Below, in pieces: positions 1 to 6,943 of a DNA stretch of 6,943 nt. The stretch spans positions 1 to 6,943 of the IMG/VR virus record IMGVR_UViG_648276647_000010. One strand, written 5' to 3'. The position numbers and the translations under genes were made by a program. Under the pieces are notes generated by a model that searched no databases, had not been told where the DNA came from, and was given only the letters and a program-made list of their open reading frames with translations. Source of the stretch: a virus. Lineage: Duplodnaviria; Heunggongvirae; Uroviricota; Caudoviricetes. Position 1 is the first letter of the stretch. Every line of letters starts with the position of its first letter.

Positions 1-254
1 GGCTGATATAGCACCTGTTCTTAAGTTTATAGCGAATGGCCTTAATGGGCCGATATCACCGTTTTCGCCCTGTCCTTCAGCCGTCGGAATGAAATGAAGA
101 AAATCTTCTGAACGACGGAAAATAAGACCGAAGGCATTATTGAAAATTCGCAGCGCATTTATCGCGTCAATTTTCAGTTCTCCGGTCATTTTATCGCCTG
201 AACGCTGAACGGCGTTACCAGCCCTGTTTACCGTTTCCTGTAAACCGAGGTTTT
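1..254 (-). CDS. Phage tail-fibre variable domain (Mu S/S'-type exon inside the invertible G segment), partial; no own start codon, runs off the window edge
   Basis: Hand translation of the minus strand from 254 downward gives an uninterrupted frame to position 1 (NLGLQETVNRAGNAVQRSGDKMTGELKIDAINALRIFNNAFGLIFRRSEDFLHFIPTAEGQGENGDIGPLRPF...). It contains the SGDxMTGxL-type motif typical of phage tail-fibre proteins. The frame begins inside the gix site, as expected for a variable exon that is only expressed after inversion fuses it to a constant 5' part. Not in the supplied ORF track because it lacks a start codon. Confidence 0.55.
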
Positions 255-260
255 AGATAA
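235..260. other. gix-type 26-bp recombination (crossover) site for the Gin invertase; right boundary of the invertible G segment
   Basis: The sequence ttcctgtaaacc-ga-ggttttagataa (235-260) is an imperfect palindrome of two 12-bp half-sites around a 2-bp core. It matches the Gin/Hin/Cin/Pin crossover-site family and sits immediately upstream of the invertase gene, as in phage Mu. Confidence 0.7.
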
Positions 261-314
261 TGGCTGTTTCCGGCCTGCATGGCATGATTTGCGCTTTTAA
301 ACGGGAGATCCAGA

Positions 315-908
315 GTGCTGATTGGCTATGTAAGGGTATCAACAAATGACCAGAATACAGACCTGCAACGAAACGCTCTTGTTTGTGCAGGATGTGAACA
401 AATATTTGAAGATAAATTAAGCGGAACAAGGACAGACAGACCTGGATTAAAACGCGCTTTAAAGCGCCTTCAAAAAGGTGACACACTGGTTGTCTGGAAA
501 CTGGATCGCCTCGGGCGAAGCATGAAACATTTGATTTCTCTCGTAGGGGAATTACGAGAGCGAGGGATTAATTTTCGCAGTCTTACTGACAGTATTGATA
601 CGTCATCTCCAATGGGGCGTTTTTTCTTCCACGTTATGGGTGCCCTGGCTGAGATGGAACGAGAACTAATCATCGAGCGAACGATGGCAGGACTTGCTGC
701 CGCCAGAAATAAAGGCCGTATTGGTGGGCGACCACCTAAACTAACCAAAGCGGAATGGGAGCAGGCCGGGCGTTTATTAGCACAAGGAATCCCCCGCAAG
801 CAGGTTGCATTGATCTACGATGTGGCCCTGTCAACTCTGTATAAAAAACACCCCGCGAAACGAACGCATATAGAAAACGACGATCGAATCAATCAAATCG
901 ATCGGTAA
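315..908 (+). CDS. gin: Serine-recombinase DNA invertase Gin (G-segment invertase, Hin/Gin/Cin/Pin family)
   Basis: 197-aa ORF starting at GTG 315, with GGAGA Shine-Dalgarno at 304-308. N-terminus MLIGYVRVSTNDQ carries the catalytic Ser9 of the resolvase/invertase domain, and the C-terminus has a helix-turn-helix (GRPPKLTKAEWEQAGRLL...). The sequence matches phage Mu Gin as I recall it. In Mu the Fis-dependent recombinational enhancer lies inside the 5' part of this gene; I could not place it precisely by eye. Confidence 0.9.
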   Translation: MLIGYVRVSTNDQNTDLQRNALVCAGCEQIFEDKLSGTRTDRPGLKRALKRLQKGDTLVVWKLDRLGRSMKHLISLVGELRERGINFRSLTDSIDTSSPMGRFFFHVMGALAEMERELIIERTMAGLAAARNKGRIGGRPPKLTKAEWEQAGRLLAQGIPRKQVALIYDVALSTLYKKHPAKRTHIENDDRINQIDR

Positions 909-916
909 TACAGATC
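882..916. promoter_or_regulatory. Triad of Dam GATC sites upstream of the mom promoter (OxyR/MomR binding region when unmethylated)
   Basis: Three GATC sites at 882-885, 900-903 and 913-916, clustered in the 3' end of gin just upstream of the com-mom promoter. This matches the known Mu arrangement in which unmethylated GATCs permit OxyR repression of mom. Confidence 0.6.
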
Positions 917-965
917 GATTATGCCCCAATAACCACACTCAACCCATGATGTTTTTTAAGATAGT
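917..965 (+). promoter_or_regulatory. mom operon promoter region (Pmom) with putative C-activator binding palindrome and T6 spacer run
   Basis: Interrupted palindrome TTAT-gcccca-ATAA at 919-932 is a candidate C-protein site. A run of six T at 952-957 lies just upstream of the -10-like TAAGAT at 957-962, and the AGGAGG Shine-Dalgarno at 981-986 precedes the com ATG at 991. This matches the described weak, activator-dependent Pmom; exact -35/-10 assignment is uncertain. Confidence 0.5.
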
Positions 966-990
966 GGCGAATTGATGCAAAGGAGGTGAG

Positions 991-1179
991 ATGAAATCAA
1001 TTCGCTGTAAAAACTGCAACAAACTGTTATTTAAGGCGGATTCCTTTGATCACATTGAAATCAGGTGTCCGCGTTGTAAACGTCACATCATAATGCTGAA
1101 TGCCTGCGAGCATCCCACGGAGAAACATTGTGGGAAAAGAGAAGAAATCACGCATTCTGACGAAACCGTGCGTTATTGA
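991..1179 (+). CDS. com: Com, zinc-finger translational activator of mom
   Basis: 62-aa [37 protein letters not shown]... with Cys6/Cys9/Cys26/Cys29 forming the CxxC...CxxC zinc site described for Mu Com. Strong Shine-Dalgarno upstream, and the 3' end overlaps the mom start region as in Mu. Confidence 0.9.
1113..1135 (+). promoter_or_regulatory. mom translation-initiation stem-loop (Com-regulated); sequesters the Shine-Dalgarno and GUG start
   Basis: Perfect 6-bp inverted repeat tcccac (1113-1118) / guggga (1130-1135) around an 11-nt loop ggagaaacauu. The loop contains GGAG (1119-1122) and the stem contains GUG 1130-1132, in frame with the mom ORF. This matches the known mechanism in which Com binds just 5' of a hairpin to unmask mom initiation. 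Confidence 0.55.
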
Positions 1180-1846
1180 GTATGAAGGCCAGATTGTTGG
1201 CTATGGTTCAAAGGAGCTGCGCGTTGAAACCATATCCTGCTGGCTGGCCCGCACAATTATTCAGACAAAGCACTATTCCCGCCGTTTTGTGAATAACTCT
1301 TACCTCCACCTGGGAGTATTCAGCGGACGCGATCTGGTTGGCGTTCTCCAGTGGGGATATGCCCTTAACCCCAACTCAGGTCGTCGTGTCGTGCTTGAAA
1401 CGGATAACCGGGGCTATATGGAGTTGAATCGCATGTGGCTACACGACGACATGCCCCGCAACTCTGAATCACGGGCCATCAGCTACGCGCTGAAAGTTAT
1501 CAGATTACTGTATCCGTCAGTGGAGTGGGTTCAGTCCTTTGCTGACGAACGCTGCGGACGCGCAGGCGTTGTGTATCAGGCGTCGAATTTTGATTTTATT
1601 GGCAGCCATGAAAGCACGTTCTACGAGCTGGATGGTGAGTGGTATCACGAGATAACGATGAACGCGATTAAGCGAGGTGGACAACGAGGCGTGTATTTAC
1701 GGGCTAATAAAGAGCGTGCCGTGGTGCACAAATTTAATCAGTATCGCTACATCAGATTCCTGAACAAGCGAGCAAGGAAGCGGCTAAATACTAAGCTATT
1801 CAGGATCCAACCATATCCAAAATCAATTCTGACTGGTATCAAATAA
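1130..1846 (+). CDS. mom: Mom DNA-modification enzyme (adenine N6 acetamido/carbamoylmethyl modification; acyltransferase-like fold), anti-restriction
   Basis: The ORF immediately follows and overlaps com and has the Mu Mom-like sequence (…[40 protein letters not shown]…). I place the start at GUG 1130, which has a GGAG 7 nt upstream and sits in the regulatory hairpin. The ORF track extends it to ATG 1100, which lacks a Shine-Dalgarno. The exact start and the C-terminus relative to canonical Mu Mom are not verified. Confidence 0.8.
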
Positions 1847-1902
1847 CCTATTTGTTCCTGCTGAAAAACAGCCCCTCATGGCATAAAATTGTTCCCGTGA
1901 GT

Positions 1903-1942
1903 TTAAAATGACCAAGTGGCAGTGCATTATTTGGTCATTTTA
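1903..1942. repeat. Inverted repeat TTAAAATGACCAA-N15-TTGGTCATTTTA (12 of 13 bp symmetric), flanked by direct repeats GTGAGTTTAAAA (1897-1908) and GTGAGTTTTAAA (1947-1958)
   Basis: Seen directly in the sequence. It lies between the mom stop and the next gene. It could be an operator for the downstream gene or a weak AT-rich terminator for the mom transcript; the function is unknown. Confidence 0.4.
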
Positions 1943-1981
1943 TGGGGTGAGTTTTAAAGTCAAAACGATGGTAAGGTGCAT

Positions 1982-2317
1982 ATGAAAAAAATACTCACAG
2001 CAGTACTACTTTGCTTTGGTGTTCTTTCTGCTAATCAGGCAATAGCAGTTGTTACCTTAAGCGGTAAGTATCCAGCATGCATATCTGCTAATGAATTCGA
2101 GCGATTAAGTTCAATTTTGCAACACGAAGATCAAGAAGCATTTGAAGAGATCTTTAAAACATCATGCTTTATGCCTAAAAAGGGGCTAAAAGTTGATAAA
2201 GTGGTTTCTATGGGGTGGACCAGTGGGGTTGCGCATGTCAAAGTTTATGTGAAAGGCAATCTTTACGATCTTTGGACTAACACCGAAAATCTTCAGTCCG
2301 AGAAGGCTGGTAAATAA
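1982..2317 (+). CDS. Hypothetical small secreted protein (Sec signal peptide, ~90-aa mature domain with 2 Cys); AT-rich orphan gene
   Basis: ORF with ATG at 1982 (the track starts it at in-frame GTG 1976) and AAGG at 1973-1976. N-terminus MKKILTAVLLCFGVLSANQAIA is a classic signal peptide with an AxA cleavage motif. GC is about 38% over the first 120 bp versus roughly 50% in the flanking core genes. I recognise no family. Confidence 0.6.
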   Translation: MKKILTAVLLCFGVLSANQAIAVVTLSGKYPACISANEFERLSSILQHEDQEAFEEIFKTSCFMPKKGLKVDKVVSMGWTSGVAHVKVYVKGNLYDLWTNTENLQSEKAGK

Positions 2318-2460
2318 AGCAGTAGTCAACCTGTAATCACATCATCTACCAGCTATCGCCTGATAAAGTTAGGTGATAGCTATTTCAATACTCTCTGGTT
2401 TTACTGGAAGCACGAAACTTAATACTCCCATTCCTGATTGCTTAATAATCAAGCATTTTT

Positions 2461-2526
2461 ATCTTGAATGTTTTTGCTATCACACGCGATAGCCTATCTT
2501 GAATGATTTTCAAAAATATCTTGAAT
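2461..2526. repeat. Three direct copies of ATCTTGAAT(G/A) at 2461, 2497 and 2517, with a GCTATC-N6-GATAGC palindrome at 2476-2493
   Basis: Seen directly in the sequence, in the convergent intergenic region between the orphan gene and the 3' end of opgB. A further inverted repeat AGCTATC-N17-GATAGCT lies at 2352-2382. Confidence 0.35.
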
Positions 2527-2575
2527 AATTTTGCGCGCTTTACGCACCTTATGCGACCTACACATCAGTCAGGAA

Positions 2576-4867
2576 TTACCCTTCACGTTCTACCACTTTA
2601 ATTTCCACCATGCCGATCCCGAGCTTACGCGGCGAGTGCCCGAGGATATTCCCTTCGTTGGTTGAGACAGGTTCCGGCGGCACAATTACCAGTGTGTCGG
2701 CATCGGTTGGGTTATCGAAATGCAGTGTGGTGGTGGTCACTTCATTGCCCAGCACAAGGGTTTGTTCTTCATTGCCTACGCGTACCGGAATAGGACGGCT
2801 GGCGTTATTGCCGTATGCTTTGGCGGTAATCACCAGGTCAAATTTCTTCGGCAGCGGATGCTTGTACTCGATTTTTACTTCATCGCCCAGCTGTGCGTTG
2901 GACCAGCGGCCCCACGACTCTGGACGAGAAATCCCGCTAAACTGTTTCACCTCTTCTGGCGCACCAGCGACGTTAAAGATGAAACTGTCGGCTTTGTAGC
3001 GAATATCGTTATCAACAATCTTTAGCGTATCGACATTGCCTTTGTAACGCGCCATGTCGATGACCGTATCTTTAAATGCCGTTTTGCCCTTCCATATTGC
3101 TTTGTCAACATGCTGAACAATTTGCTGACCGCCAAGCTGCCCTTGCGAGACACACCAGTCGGTGGAGAGTGCCAGTTCCGGAGCCCAGAGTTGTGCCATC
3201 TTGTAGCAACGGTCAACCCAGACGAAATTGTCGCGTGGAGCGAAATCTGCCAGCTGGAAACGCAGCGGTGCTGAGTATTCGCTTTCCGGCAGCGGTTCCA
3301 CGCGTTTGTCTGAAACCCGCAACAGCAGCGGCAAACGGAAATGGCTACCTGAGAAGGCAATCATGTTTTTCTGCTGGTCGATGGTGAACTCTTTCATCTC
3401 TTTAGGGAATTTCCACAGGCGGATGATATCCGGCTTCCACGCCAATGTTTTCTCTTTGATATTGAGGAAGATTTCCGACATTGACTGCCCGGATAAACTG
3501 CTACGGCCAAGTCCGAGATAGTTATCGCCACCGAGAATGTCCAGCACCGTCGCGCCGTTATCCATCGTATTACGCTTCACTGCCAGCGTCTCTTGCTGCG
3601 GCTTGTCGCCACGGATGACAAAAAACAGGTTATTGCGATCCTGCTTATTAAGGTATTTCCACGCCGTATTGTTCATCGCTAAATGGTCAGAAGAGACGAC
3701 GATGACGGTATCTTTAAACCACGGTGACGCTTTGATTTTGTTGATAAACGTCGCAATATTCTCCTGGCTGCAACTTACCGCGCTGAATGACTGATTCGGC
3801 TTACCGTCAAAATCATATTTTTTGCGGTTACAGGTGCGCGAGATAAAACCATCCGGGTGATGGGTATCGACTGTCAGGGTAAACAGTGAGAATCGCTGAC
3901 CTGAGCGGGAAAGCTCTTCAAATTTTTTCCACGCTTCATCGAGAACGGTATCGTCGTAGAATCCCCAGTCGTTGCGATAGTGCGGGTCGGCCACCACGCT
4001 TTTCAGCTCTTCTGAGCCGTATAAGTGGTCGAAGCCGTGCGATTTCAGGAACACATCTTTACCGGCAAAACGCAGATTCGCGCCCTGCACGAAATAGTTC
4101 TGATAACCCGAGTTTTTCAGAATATCGCCCAGACAGATGTTCTGCGGGAAGAAGCTGGAGACAGAGGCGGAGGCGTTGCCTTCAAATGGGGCAAACAGCG
4201 GTATGCCGCACTGAGAAGCTACCATGCCCGCAATCGTGTAATCCGTTCCCGGCAGTTGCTGCGTGTGGCTGAAATCCAGGCCTTCATTTTTCAACGCGCC
4301 CAGTTCAGGCGTGAGATCCGGGAAAGCCTCGTTATCAAAATAGGTCCGCTCGAGACTTTCGCCGTAGATATAAACCAGGTTGAGTTTCGGGTCAGGGATA
4401 GTTCTCGACGGCTCTTTATAATAAGCCGCAAAGTCCGGGTCGCCGTCGCGTGACTGGGATTTCACCAGTTCCGTTATCTGACGAAATGCCGGGCTGGCAT
4501 CCACTGAACCCAGCGCCAGTAAGAGTGCCAGCAGGCTGTAACCAAAATGGTGCGGATGATGGCGACGACGGCGCAGGATCCAGCCCAGCGCACCGAACAC
4601 CGCCGTCAGCCCCAGCACAATGCCGATACCCGGCAGGATGTATTTGCTGACGCCAGCACCGGTCAGGCTGTTGGTTAAGGTATAGAGAACCGCGTCGTTA
4701 ATACCATCGCCAGTAAAATAGTCGCTGGCAAACAGGGTGATATTTAAAACGACAAATAGCCCCAGCACCGTTAACGTGGCTGCAAACCACCAGGTGTTAC
4801 GTCCCGCTTTCCATGCGTAAATCAGCACAGAGGCGAGAAAAAGGGCGAAAGAGAGTAGTTCTGACAA
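2576..4867 (-). CDS. opgB: Phosphoglycerol transferase I (osmoregulated periplasmic glucan biosynthesis; sulfatase/LTA-synthase-like membrane enzyme)
   Basis: 763-aa ORF with N-terminal transmembrane helices ([20 protein letters not shown]..., [15 protein letters not shown]..., [19 protein letters not shown]) followed by a large periplasmic sulfatase-type domain. Length and sequence match E. coli MdoB/OpgB as I recall it, and the position downstream of yjjA-dnaC-dnaT matches the E. coli gene order. Confidence 0.9.
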
Positions 4868-5120
4868 CGGGCGATCCTCACTAAACCGGGCCGTTTAGCC
4901 AACGTTTAAGCTTTTTGAGAAGCACAATGTAATGGCGTCGCCATATTGCTGCAATTCTAGTGTCAAAAAAATGCGACGTTGTTAGGAATTAGTTTATAAA
5001 CAGACTTTTTTGATCGCGGTCGCTTCCCGTGTAACAGGGGTAAAACCGTCCAGGAGCAGGGAAAAGGGCAGGAGAGAGCCGCGTCAGCCGGGTAACAGCT
5101 AAAACGCGGCGTTTCGCGGT

Positions 5121-5618
5121 TCAGGAAATGAAGTTCAGCCCCTGCTTTAATACTAGATCGCAGGCTTTGGTTTTCACCTTTTCTGCCAGCGGAGTCGTTC
5201 CAATATTATCCAGATTGAGTTGCTGACCATCTTTGGTTTTCAGCAAACCCTGAATGCCATCCAGATAGTTGGTGTCTTCTTTTTGCTCTTCACTGTTCAG
5301 GCCCAGTTTTTCCAGTACCTGATTCTTGATGTTTTCGGCATCGGTTACCGAAGCCAGCTTTTGCTTCGCACAGTATTGCAGAATGCCTGCGGCGTTGTTC
5401 ATGTTATCTGCGCTTAAGGCCTGGTTCCCGCTGCTAAGCAAGTTAGTTAATGACGCGAGCGACCAACCGCCTTCCTGTGTCGTGTTGTTTTGGTTGCCAA
5501 GTTCGCTGGCGGCGCTGGAGAGCGCATCTTTCCAGGACGCAGCATGCACCCCGGTGGAAATTAATGCGCTGGCGGCAATGGCACAGCACAGAAGATGTTT
5601 AATAGTTTTCATCATCAT
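5121..5618 (-). CDS. yjjA: Conserved secreted protein YjjA (DUF2501 family)
   Basis: 165-aa ORF with signal peptide (MMMKTIKHLLCCAIAASALISTGVHA). It lies between dnaC and opgB as in E. coli. The true start may be the 2nd or 3rd of the three tandem ATG codons. Confidence 0.75.
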   Translation of the reverse strand: MMMKTIKHLLCCAIAASALISTGVHAASWKDALSSAASELGNQNNTTQEGGWSLASLTNLLSSGNQALSADNMNNAAGILQYCAKQKLASVTDAENIKNQVLEKLGLNSEEQKEDTNYLDGIQGLLKTKDGQQLNLDNIGTTPLAEKVKTKACDLVLKQGLNFIS

Positions 5619-5663
5619 TACTCAAGGTTGAATTGTGTCGCAGTATACCGCCAGAAACGGGGA

Positions 5664-6401
5664 TTAATACTCTTTACCTGTTACACGGCTACGGTAGCTA
5701 TCCCAGTTGAAGATCACCCACAAACTGTTACCCAGGCGCATACGGTCCATCACGCGTTCGCCCAGCAACTTGGTCATCTCTTCCATATTACTGTTGGTCA
5801 GCATCCCGGTTGGGCGTTTGGAAGAAGAGCGGCGATCGACGATCTGGTTGATGATCACTTTTTCGTATTTCGATTCGGTCTGCACGCCGATCTCATCGAT
5901 CACCAGCAGATCAACGTTACTCAGATCGTTAAGCAGTTGTTCTTCGCTGGTACCGCTATTCCTGAAGGTATCTTTCATCGCCGACATAATATCGGCCACG
6001 GTGATGATCAATACGGATTTACCGCGTAGCAGCAGCTCGTTGCAGATTGCCGCCGCCAGATGGTTTTTGCCGGTTCCTGGCTTGCCAGAAAAGATGAAGC
6101 TGGCGATGTTGCCGTCAAACTCTTCGACATACTGGCGCGCTTTGCTTAACGCATTCATCTGCCCTTCACACTCAACGCGATAGTTCTCAAAGGAGCAGTT
6201 CTGATGCAGTGGACGAATACCGGAGCGGTTAAAGGTGCGCTGCATTTTCATCGCCCGATTTTCACGTTCGAGAGCGGCGGAGCGGATCGCCCCTTGTTCT
6301 TTCTGCCAGGCCAGTAATTCTTCACCCGTTTTGAACGCAGGTTTGATATGGGCAGGCATCATTTTTTGCAGGCGTTGCATCAGGTCGCCAACGTTTTTCA
6401 T
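5664..6401 (-). CDS. dnaC: Replicative helicase loader DnaC (AAA+ ATPase)
   Basis: 245-aa ORF with Walker A motif GKPGTGKNHLAAAI and Walker B-like LLVIDEIG. The sequence matches E. coli DnaC, and the start lies 2 bp from the dnaT stop, indicating an operon. Confidence 0.95.
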   Translation of the reverse strand: MKNVGDLMQRLQKMMPAHIKPAFKTGEELLAWQKEQGAIRSAALERENRAMKMQRTFNRSGIRPLHQNCSFENYRVECEGQMNALSKARQYVEEFDGNIASFIFSGKPGTGKNHLAAAICNELLLRGKSVLIITVADIMSAMKDTFRNSGTSEEQLLNDLSNVDLLVIDEIGVQTESKYEKVIINQIVDRRSSSKRPTGMLTNSNMEEMTKLLGERVMDRMRLGNSLWVIFNWDSYRSRVTGKEY

Positions 6402-6403
6402 CG

Positions 6404-6943
6404 TTACCCTCTGAATCCTGGTGGAATTTGGCTGTCAGGTTCACTGACCGTATTCACATCTCGTTTCGGCAGTCCGCCGTTGCTGGCACGACCGATTTGC
6501 AGGCTGCGCGCCAGTTTTTGTTGCCACTGCACATGGTGAAAGACTTTGCCTTCCGCCTGCCAGTAGGCAATGAATGACGCCAGTTCTTCGGCGGTCACCG
6601 GCTCTCTTAGTGCCACGCCCCATAGCGCCGCCAGGCGGATAAAGTCGGCATCGGGTTGCCAGTCCGGATACATGGCAAATTTCCCCATGGGTACGGCAAC
6701 GGGAGCGGTTTGCGGTTCCTGATAGAGTTGATCGTCCAGGGCCACGTCACTTCCCGGACGCGCCAGCTTTTCTTCCAGCGCCAGCAGTTCAGCCAGGCGT
6801 GCAGGCGTGATGGCATAAAACGCCGGGGCATTGTTAGCAAATACGGCAACCACACCGCCTTCAGCTTTTGCCAGAACGGTTTGGTGATCGTGTACCAGGG
6901 CGTCAATACCAACGACGTCCGGGGTCAAAACTCTGGAAGACAT
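6404..6943 (-). CDS. dnaT: Primosomal protein 1 (DnaT)
   Basis: 179-aa ORF ([30 protein letters not shown]...) immediately upstream of and co-directional with dnaC. Its ATG is the reverse complement of the last three bases of the window, so the CDS is complete but its promoter is outside the window. Confidence 0.9.

Follow-up and report, generated by a model that had tools for sequence, protein, structure and literature searches.

In phage Mu, transcription of mom is confined to the late phase, with Dam methylation of three GATC sites blocking the binding of OxyR and the activator C being required in addition (PMC3378877, PMC4461284), and translation of mom is switched on by Com (PMC6483171). 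The Mom enzyme uses Gly-tRNA(Gly) as donor to attach glycine to the N6 of adenine in double-stranded DNA, the product then rearranging to 6-NcmdA, and R111, S124 and R151, with D149 named alongside, are essential residues for this reaction (PMC13219725). The E. coli prophage RM8082 and the Yersinia phages vB_YpM_5 and vB_YpM_6 (MT374853 and MT374854, respectively) combine Mu-type late genes and gin-com-mom with an alternative transposase family. The latter two are viable isolated phages (PMC10434027); hence, such hybrids are viable. The DNA considered here, a stretch of 6,943 nucleotides (IMG/VR record IMGVR_UViG_648276647_000010, positions 1 to 6,943; referred to as the window), very probably represents the right junction of a naturally transposed mosaic Mu-family prophage inserted between lgoD and opgB of Escherichia coli. 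Three parts would be joined in this element: a Mu/D108-type late end with G segment, gix, Gin and com-mom, a self-contained accessory gene in the slot between mom and the end, encoding a small secreted protein, and the right end of a second transposition family, typified by the STEC346 prophage, with three TATCTTGAAT repeats and the terminus GCGCGCTTTA. In line with the hybrid make-up of its relatives, the window element would accordingly be a further recombinant of Mu/D108 late end, accessory gene and STEC346-type right end.

Homology to the E. coli core begins exactly at base 2543, the last phage base being 2542. From there to the window edge (2543-6943, minus strand) the DNA is bacterial, including the remnant of an intergenic hairpin between lgoD and opgB, and matches Rb-23 and two further E. 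coli strains at 100% identity from base 2543 onwards, with opgB (2576-4867), yjjA (5121-5618), dnaC (5664-6401) and dnaT (6404-6943) all on the minus strand in K-12 order. The initial annotation, which had placed a Mu-type module beside this block in E. coli order and strand, was right in this respect, but it had taken the approximately 700 bp preceding the core (1847-2542) for a spacer of non-core DNA, whereas these bases hold a phage accessory gene and the true right end. The prophage boundary should accordingly be annotated at 2542 and not after mom, and the presumed spacer as phage cargo plus transposon end. The exact 111-aa product of the accessory gene is encoded on at least 24 public contigs, each time downstream of com-mom; these contigs either end within the G segment or extend into no more than 10 kb of flank. 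At the ten loci examined (sister contigs L008-L017) the sequence is constant up to GCGCGCTTTA and then passes into nine different host flanks, one of them plasmid-like, the Logan contig L015 (run SRR024152) showing the same opgB junction as the window. Copies at many unrelated targets consequently break at the same terminal base (nine flanks), and such a shared terminus is the signature of a transposable phage end. As bases 1847-2542 travel with com-mom to other sites, always ending at the same base, this segment is phage DNA. No Rfam family and no tRNA is present within the window, ruling out a tRNA-targeted integrase island.

The right end itself (2460-2542, plus strand), delimited by its repeats, by the sister copies and by alignment, carries three direct repeats of TATCTTGAATnnTTTTnn at 2460-2477, 2495-2512 and 2517-2534, which take the form TATCTTGAAT(n2)TTTT. 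The first repeat starts 17 nt inside the terminus, a spacing also seen at left ends in the STEC346-type family, with two more repeats inboard, and the terminus reads ...TTTTGCGCGCTTTA. Judged from this arrangement, the repeats are putative transposase-binding sites R3, R2 and R1, and the cognate transposase is presumably of the STEC346 type and encoded at the left end beyond the window. The last 50 bp of the element are 86-88% identical to right ends in STEC346, STEC388, FDAARGOS_943 and others, where prophages with these ends interrupt fliH, yhfX and other genes, and alignment with the right ends of STEC346 and STEC388 places all three repeats in register. An interpretation of the repeats as arm-type sites of a tyrosine-integrase attachment site was rejected, the targets being random with a short duplication and no integrase accompanying them.

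This end is not that of Mu sensu stricto, which is defined by the MuA sites R1-R3 and the sequence ...CGTGCGCCGCTTCA with a terminal CA. The window lacks the ~115 bp of attR with which Mu terminates, even with 3 mismatches allowed the terminal 18-mer of attR finds no match in it, and an alignment of the two ends reflects parallel architecture only. A terminal CA, as used by Mu, is widespread in the related DDE transposases and integrases. Hence, the label "Mu-type" given in the initial annotation is apt for the late, host-range and anti-restriction module and fails for the transposition end, and the proposed collinearity with the extreme right end of Mu holds only as far as 1815 or, in the case of D108, 1846.

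The second family, to which the right end belongs, is best illustrated by the STEC346 prophage (contig L007, 8847-44090), the transposase of which is 29% identical to MuA and whose ends read TATGACTAGGTAATTTATTCAAGATA on the left and ...TATCTTGAATAATTTTGCGCGCTTTA on the right. These ends follow the scheme TATGAC...GCGCGCTTTA, each having the TTCAAGATA motif at a distance of 17 nt from its terminus, and the termini of the family as a whole are 5'-TATGA...GCGCGCTTTA-3'. For the window element, a cognate transposase of 695-698 aa with STEC346-type residues 50-200 would be expected; the STEC346-type transposase clusters P0015, P0016 and P0017 are located at other insertion sites. Identity of the family transposases to MuA is in the range of about 29-33% (L007; RM8082, L026 2537-39825; vB_YpM_5, L029 4575-4760), and the first repeat is always found 17 nt from the terminus in the left ends of L034, L026 and L029. 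When removing the prophage together with one 4-bp copy of the target, the empty site was reconstructed with a 100% match in one piece of 296 nt both for STEC346 in yhfX and for RM8082 in ybjS; a 5-bp duplication for this end type was dismissed in view of these uninterrupted matches. Taken with the end sequences, the reconstructed sites establish TA termini and 4-bp duplications as properties of the second family. Its transposase occurs as two alleles, which are only about 50% identical in residues ~50-200 and 94-100% identical elsewhere (L007, L026, P0013-P0132). The allele co-varies with the end repeat, being TTCAAGATA in one case and TTTGATAC in the other (left ends L034, L026 and L029), and the window carries the TTCAAGATA type. 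Publications on SuMu, on the vB_YpM phages and on the Mu-like prophage of O157 discuss neither the termini nor the duplication length.

At the target, the empty site is seen in strain Rb-23, and the uninterrupted locus reads ...gtgtgtaggt|cgcaccttatgcgacctacac (in contig L002, ...gtgtgtaggt|cgcacc), which places the insertion point within an intergenic hairpin, 33 bp beyond the opgB stop codon. When uninterrupted, this hairpin forms a 14-bp perfect stem between the convergent genes lgoD and opgB (window 2543-2575; L002 2993-3023) and is probably a bidirectional terminator. It is disrupted by the insertion (-27 versus -15 kcal/mol), and opgB transcripts may now run antisense into the prophage end. 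As the left junction lies beyond the window, the target duplication can only be deduced from relatives with the same end type; the insertion would have duplicated the 4 bp CGCA, with the predicted right copy at 2543-2546. Simple insertion would then predict a left junction lgoD...GTGTGTAGGT(CGCA), that is, ...GGTGTGTAGGTCGCA|TATGAC(C/T)A(A/G)GTAA(A/T)TTATTCAAGATA next to lgoD.

Comparison of bases 1-2575 with phage records by megablast gave strong matches to SfMu (window 206-1815, 98.4%), Mu (223-1815, 97.8%) and D108 (223-1846, 96.9%), with several Yersinia Muvirus isolates at about 97% in the latter region, and a similar stretch is present in 847 of the 5426 complete E. coli genomes surveyed. 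The similarity anticipated in the initial annotation for the left 1.85 kb, with silent tail-fibre exon, gix, gin, com and mom, is thereby substantiated over 223-1846. Gene order, strands and regulatory DNA correspond to Mu and D108 at 97-98% nucleotide identity (a summary range, the value for D108 being 96.9%). In contrast to these phages, the window has no attR with MuA sites and terminal CA, holds another gene in the slot between mom and the end, possesses a distinct tail-fibre segment in bases 1-205 and encodes a Mom protein with seven additional C-terminal residues. D108 likewise has an extra gene of its own between mom and the end (gp56), which is unrelated to the accessory gene of the window.

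The functions of gin, com and mom are assigned from their near-identity to the Mu genes. The gin gene (315-908, plus strand, GTG start) encodes the serine DNA invertase of the G segment, a 197-aa protein (MLIGYVRVSTNDQ) identical to D108 Gin in 197 of 197 residues and to Mu Gin in 192 of 193, with Pfam matches to Resolvase (E=7e-50) and HTH_7 (E=2e-17). The hallmarks of a serine recombinase, i.e., a resolvase catalytic domain, a C-terminal helix-turn-helix and a catalytic serine near residue 9, are all present. Next to gin lies the 26-bp gix site (gixR, TTCCTGTAAACCGAGGTTTTAGATAA, 235-260) bordering the invertible segment, which in alignment is the same as in D108 and agrees with Mu at 25 of 26 positions; its inverted partner gixL, expected about 3 kb away, lies to the left of the window. 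From the gix crossover, a tail-fibre frame (1-247, minus strand) is read leftward and remains open to the window edge; it starts NLGLQETVN...GDKMTGELK... and runs on from gix like Mu S'. Its bases 1-205 are a non-Mu variable segment matching other Mu-like prophages (H31, and L010 at 97.8%). This S'-type exon is the gin-proximal, silent alternative. The variable segment (window 1-260) stands beside gin in the window and in sister contig L010 (8024-8339), and L008 (5240-5495) has it in the opposite orientation, joined to the constant S part. Its occurrence in both orientations among sister copies is natural evidence for G-segment flipping in the lineage of the window element. By inverting the G segment between gix sites, Gin would swap the C-terminal exon of the tail fibre together with its assembly gene, and this flipping would act as a host-range switch.

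Downstream of gin, the control region of the mom operon (880-990, plus strand, aligned with Mu) comprises the Dam/OxyR GATC sites, the C-activator site and Pmom. All three GATC sites (882, 900 and 913) are unchanged compared to Mu, and across these sites, the C-binding/Pmom stretch and the translation-initiation region of mom only 3 substitutions in 281 nt are found, none of them in these elements. Com (991-1179, plus strand, 62 aa), a zinc-ribbon translational activator of mom (Pfam Zn_ribbon_Com), is identical to Mu Com in 61 of 62 residues. Its gene overlaps mom, with the nucleotides across the mom start being the same as in Mu. The mom gene (1100-1846, plus strand), encoding the adenine N6 hypermodification enzyme, is open for 248 aa from the ATG at 1100, whereas gene callers choose the GTG at 1130, giving 238 aa. 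Mom is identical to the Mu protein in 239 of 241 residues (Pfam Mom, E=2.5e-75), and residues W48, H58, Y59, R111, S124, D149, R151, Y159 and W181 are all kept. At its C-terminus the protein is 7 aa longer (SILTGIK) than Mu Mom. The 3' end of mom departs from Mu at 1815 with loss of the Mu stop codon (window 1816-1846), and the read-through region is common to D108 and Yersinia phages, but the tails differ. The joint at which recombination linked mom to right-end DNA of non-Mu type lies within 1816-1846. All open reading frames (ORFs) and regulatory sites of the gin-com-mom module are intact. Dam/OxyR and the phage C protein would control transcription, Com would unlock mom translation, and glycylation of adenine N6 by Mom would yield restriction-resistant DNA late in lytic growth. 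The initial annotation had suggested that a chromosomal mom copy could alter the restriction sensitivity of host and phage DNA; the intact regulation assumed there is found and conforms to standard Mu biology, but the suggestion is overstated, as mom is silent in lysogens and depends on the phage C activator, whose gene lies outside the window. Since gin, com and mom are near-identical to textbook Mu genes of known function, including the recently solved chemistry of Mom, the module as first described offers little that is new.

The slot between mom and the end is occupied by an accessory gene of the moron type (1982-2317, plus strand), which encodes a protein of 111 aa with a Sec-type signal peptide and two conserved cysteines. 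Folding predicts hairpins on both sides of it, one 3' of mom (1904-1942, plus strand) with a 12-bp perfect stem (z = -2.9) and one with a 14-bp stem 3' of the accessory gene (2351-2381, plus strand; -19.8 kcal/mol, z = -4.2), the latter being a likely terminator. An AlphaFold2 model of the protein has, besides the signal peptide, a pair of helices and a small SH3-like beta-barrel (predicted local distance difference test score 78, core above 90). Matches were found neither in Pfam, NCBIfam and PHROGs nor, at a significant level, by Foldseek in the PDB, and BFVD returned only unnamed proteins. Among 5.8 billion proteins, 12 homologue clusters were obtained, and every cluster with a named source belongs to the Enterobacteriaceae. 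Homologues in IMG/VR reach 52-70% only; those with 52-54% are in other Mu-like contigs (L023, L025), about 7 kb from the transposase. In P2-like prophages of Citrobacter freundii (L030-L033) a 65% homologue is the last gene, following ogr, and there as in the window a small self-contained gene bracketed by hairpins sits at the prophage end in the manner of a moron, albeit in another carrier phage with another integration mechanism. The accessory gene moves between different temperate phages. Its product is presumably periplasmic, possibly with an exclusion or envelope role, and is likely expressed from the lysogen.

Among the relatives, vB_YpM_5, vB_YpM_6 and RM8082 share with the window a gin-com-mom module at 96-97.5% identity and the right terminus ...TTTTGCGCGCTTTA, RM8082 in addition the 4-bp duplication. 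However, their repeats are GTATCAAA/TTTGATAC instead of TATCTTGAAT, they have the other end-binding allele, and, lacking the accessory gene, they reach the terminus about 80 bp after mom. Conversely, the STEC346/FDAARGOS_943-type prophages of E. coli and Shigella show three TATCTTGAA repeats in register with the window and an identical terminal 26 bp, have com-mom directly upstream of the end and interrupt unrelated target genes, with a 4-bp duplication in the case of STEC346. In contrast to the window, these are devoid of gin, G segment and accessory gene, their late genes do not resemble those of Mu in nucleotide sequence, com-mom is only about 90% identical at that level, and Com agrees in 46 of 61 residues. 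The tail and baseplate genes of the sister copies share 97-98% identity with their Mu-type counterparts in 2014C-3075 and RM8082 and do not resemble the late genes of STEC346. A different combination is seen in E. coli 2014C-3075 (L001, 14094-14413), a Mu/D108-type prophage with 94% MuA identity, TG...CA ends and the 5-bp duplication TTCAG, in which the accessory gene precedes a relic of the variant end that retains one repeat; directly after this relic come the final 19 nt of Mu mom and then a canonical attR. By its sequence, this looks like a window-type end that inserted into mom of a resident Mu, with subsequent resolution by homologous recombination.

Several points weigh against the interpretation of the window as the right junction of a transposed, presumably complete mosaic prophage. 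Left end, transposase, C gene and the left-hand duplication copy are all beyond the window, so that completeness and transposase type are deduced from relatives, and binding of a transposase to the repeats is a prediction. Accessory gene and exact end are found in no sequenced phage record, and bases 1847-2542 are carried by none of the phage records and plasmids searched; within the 5426 complete E. coli genomes, the accessory gene is present in a single one and there inside a canonical Mu attR. Moreover, solo right-end remnants of 204 bp cut by IS1 are observed in Shigella flexneri SFBU1023 (L040, 5569-5772) and E. coli ECMA0423 (L041, 2072-2275), 99.5% identical to window 2339-2542 and inserted in an AcrB-family gene; a scan of genome contigs with the terminal 26-mer returned these two IS1-cut solo ends only.

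As IS1-cut solo ends exist, the window copy could itself be a remnant, i.e., the product of a correct past transposition that has since lost its early, left part, for example by IS-mediated deletion, leaving gin-com-mom orphaned. Both the window and L015 break in the G segment, and nothing leftward is seen for this reason; remnants in the family also include STEC388. Nevertheless, such a loss is considered unlikely, as the ORFs and regulatory sites of 1-2542 are intact and 97-100% identical to those of active relatives, and five sister copies (L008-L011 and L017) are accompanied by intact tail genes over at least 10 kb. Contigs L012-L016 break at or to the right of the G segment, which is seen in both orientations between copies, and given that sister contigs break at this flipping segment, the break in the window is not itself a sign of truncation.

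A decayed prophage that started out like 2014C-3075, and from which attR and some host DNA were later deleted so that the relic came to adjoin the opgB flank, is much less probable still. Although 2014C-3075 demonstrates that a canonical Mu can harbour the accessory gene together with a variant-end relic, and IS1-cut solo ends document decay, the deletion would have had to stop exactly at the terminal base of nine independent insertions, and the window end has the full three repeats versus a single one in the relic. Scarcely credible is a canonical Mu-type prophage stopping just after mom (at about 1846), with the 700 bp to opgB being unrelated strain-specific DNA; similarity to Mu, D108 and all phage records indeed ceases at 1815 or 1846, but no Mu attR follows mom, bases 1847-2542 accompany com-mom at nine other insertion sites with the same last base, and core homology sets in only from 2543. 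Genetic tools do use Mu ends and mom-proximal DNA, yet a mini-Mu or Mu-derived vector in a laboratory strain, an artefact that the initial annotation had named as a caveat to native prophage DNA, has a practically negligible probability, as a mini-Mu needs the missing Mu attR, the tail-fibre segment is non-Mu, and the accessory gene and variant end occur in many wild isolates with different host backgrounds.

Overall, the window holds an ordinary prophage junction with a corrected boundary, and what may merit specialist attention are the TA termini, the 4-bp duplication and the matched swap of domain and repeats. With doubt slightly prevailing, the findings can be read as tentatively pointing to an undescribed, currently mobile chimeric phage lineage, in which the host-range switch and anti-restriction module of Mu would ride on a non-MuA transposition system with 3'-TA termini, 4-bp duplications and an end-binding domain exchanged together with its repeats as a matched pair, and which would also spread a secreted SH3-like protein as a possible lysogenic-conversion or exclusion factor. 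As a small secreted ORFan carried at prophage ends of the Mu-like as well as the P2-like type, this protein is a candidate for a phage-exclusion or envelope function. The TA termini, 4-bp duplications and co-varying domain and repeats of the second system appear to be unremarked in the papers searched and would be of interest to transposition biochemists. For the biology of the group this means that the "Mu-like" prophages of E. coli comprise at least two transposition systems exchanging late modules.

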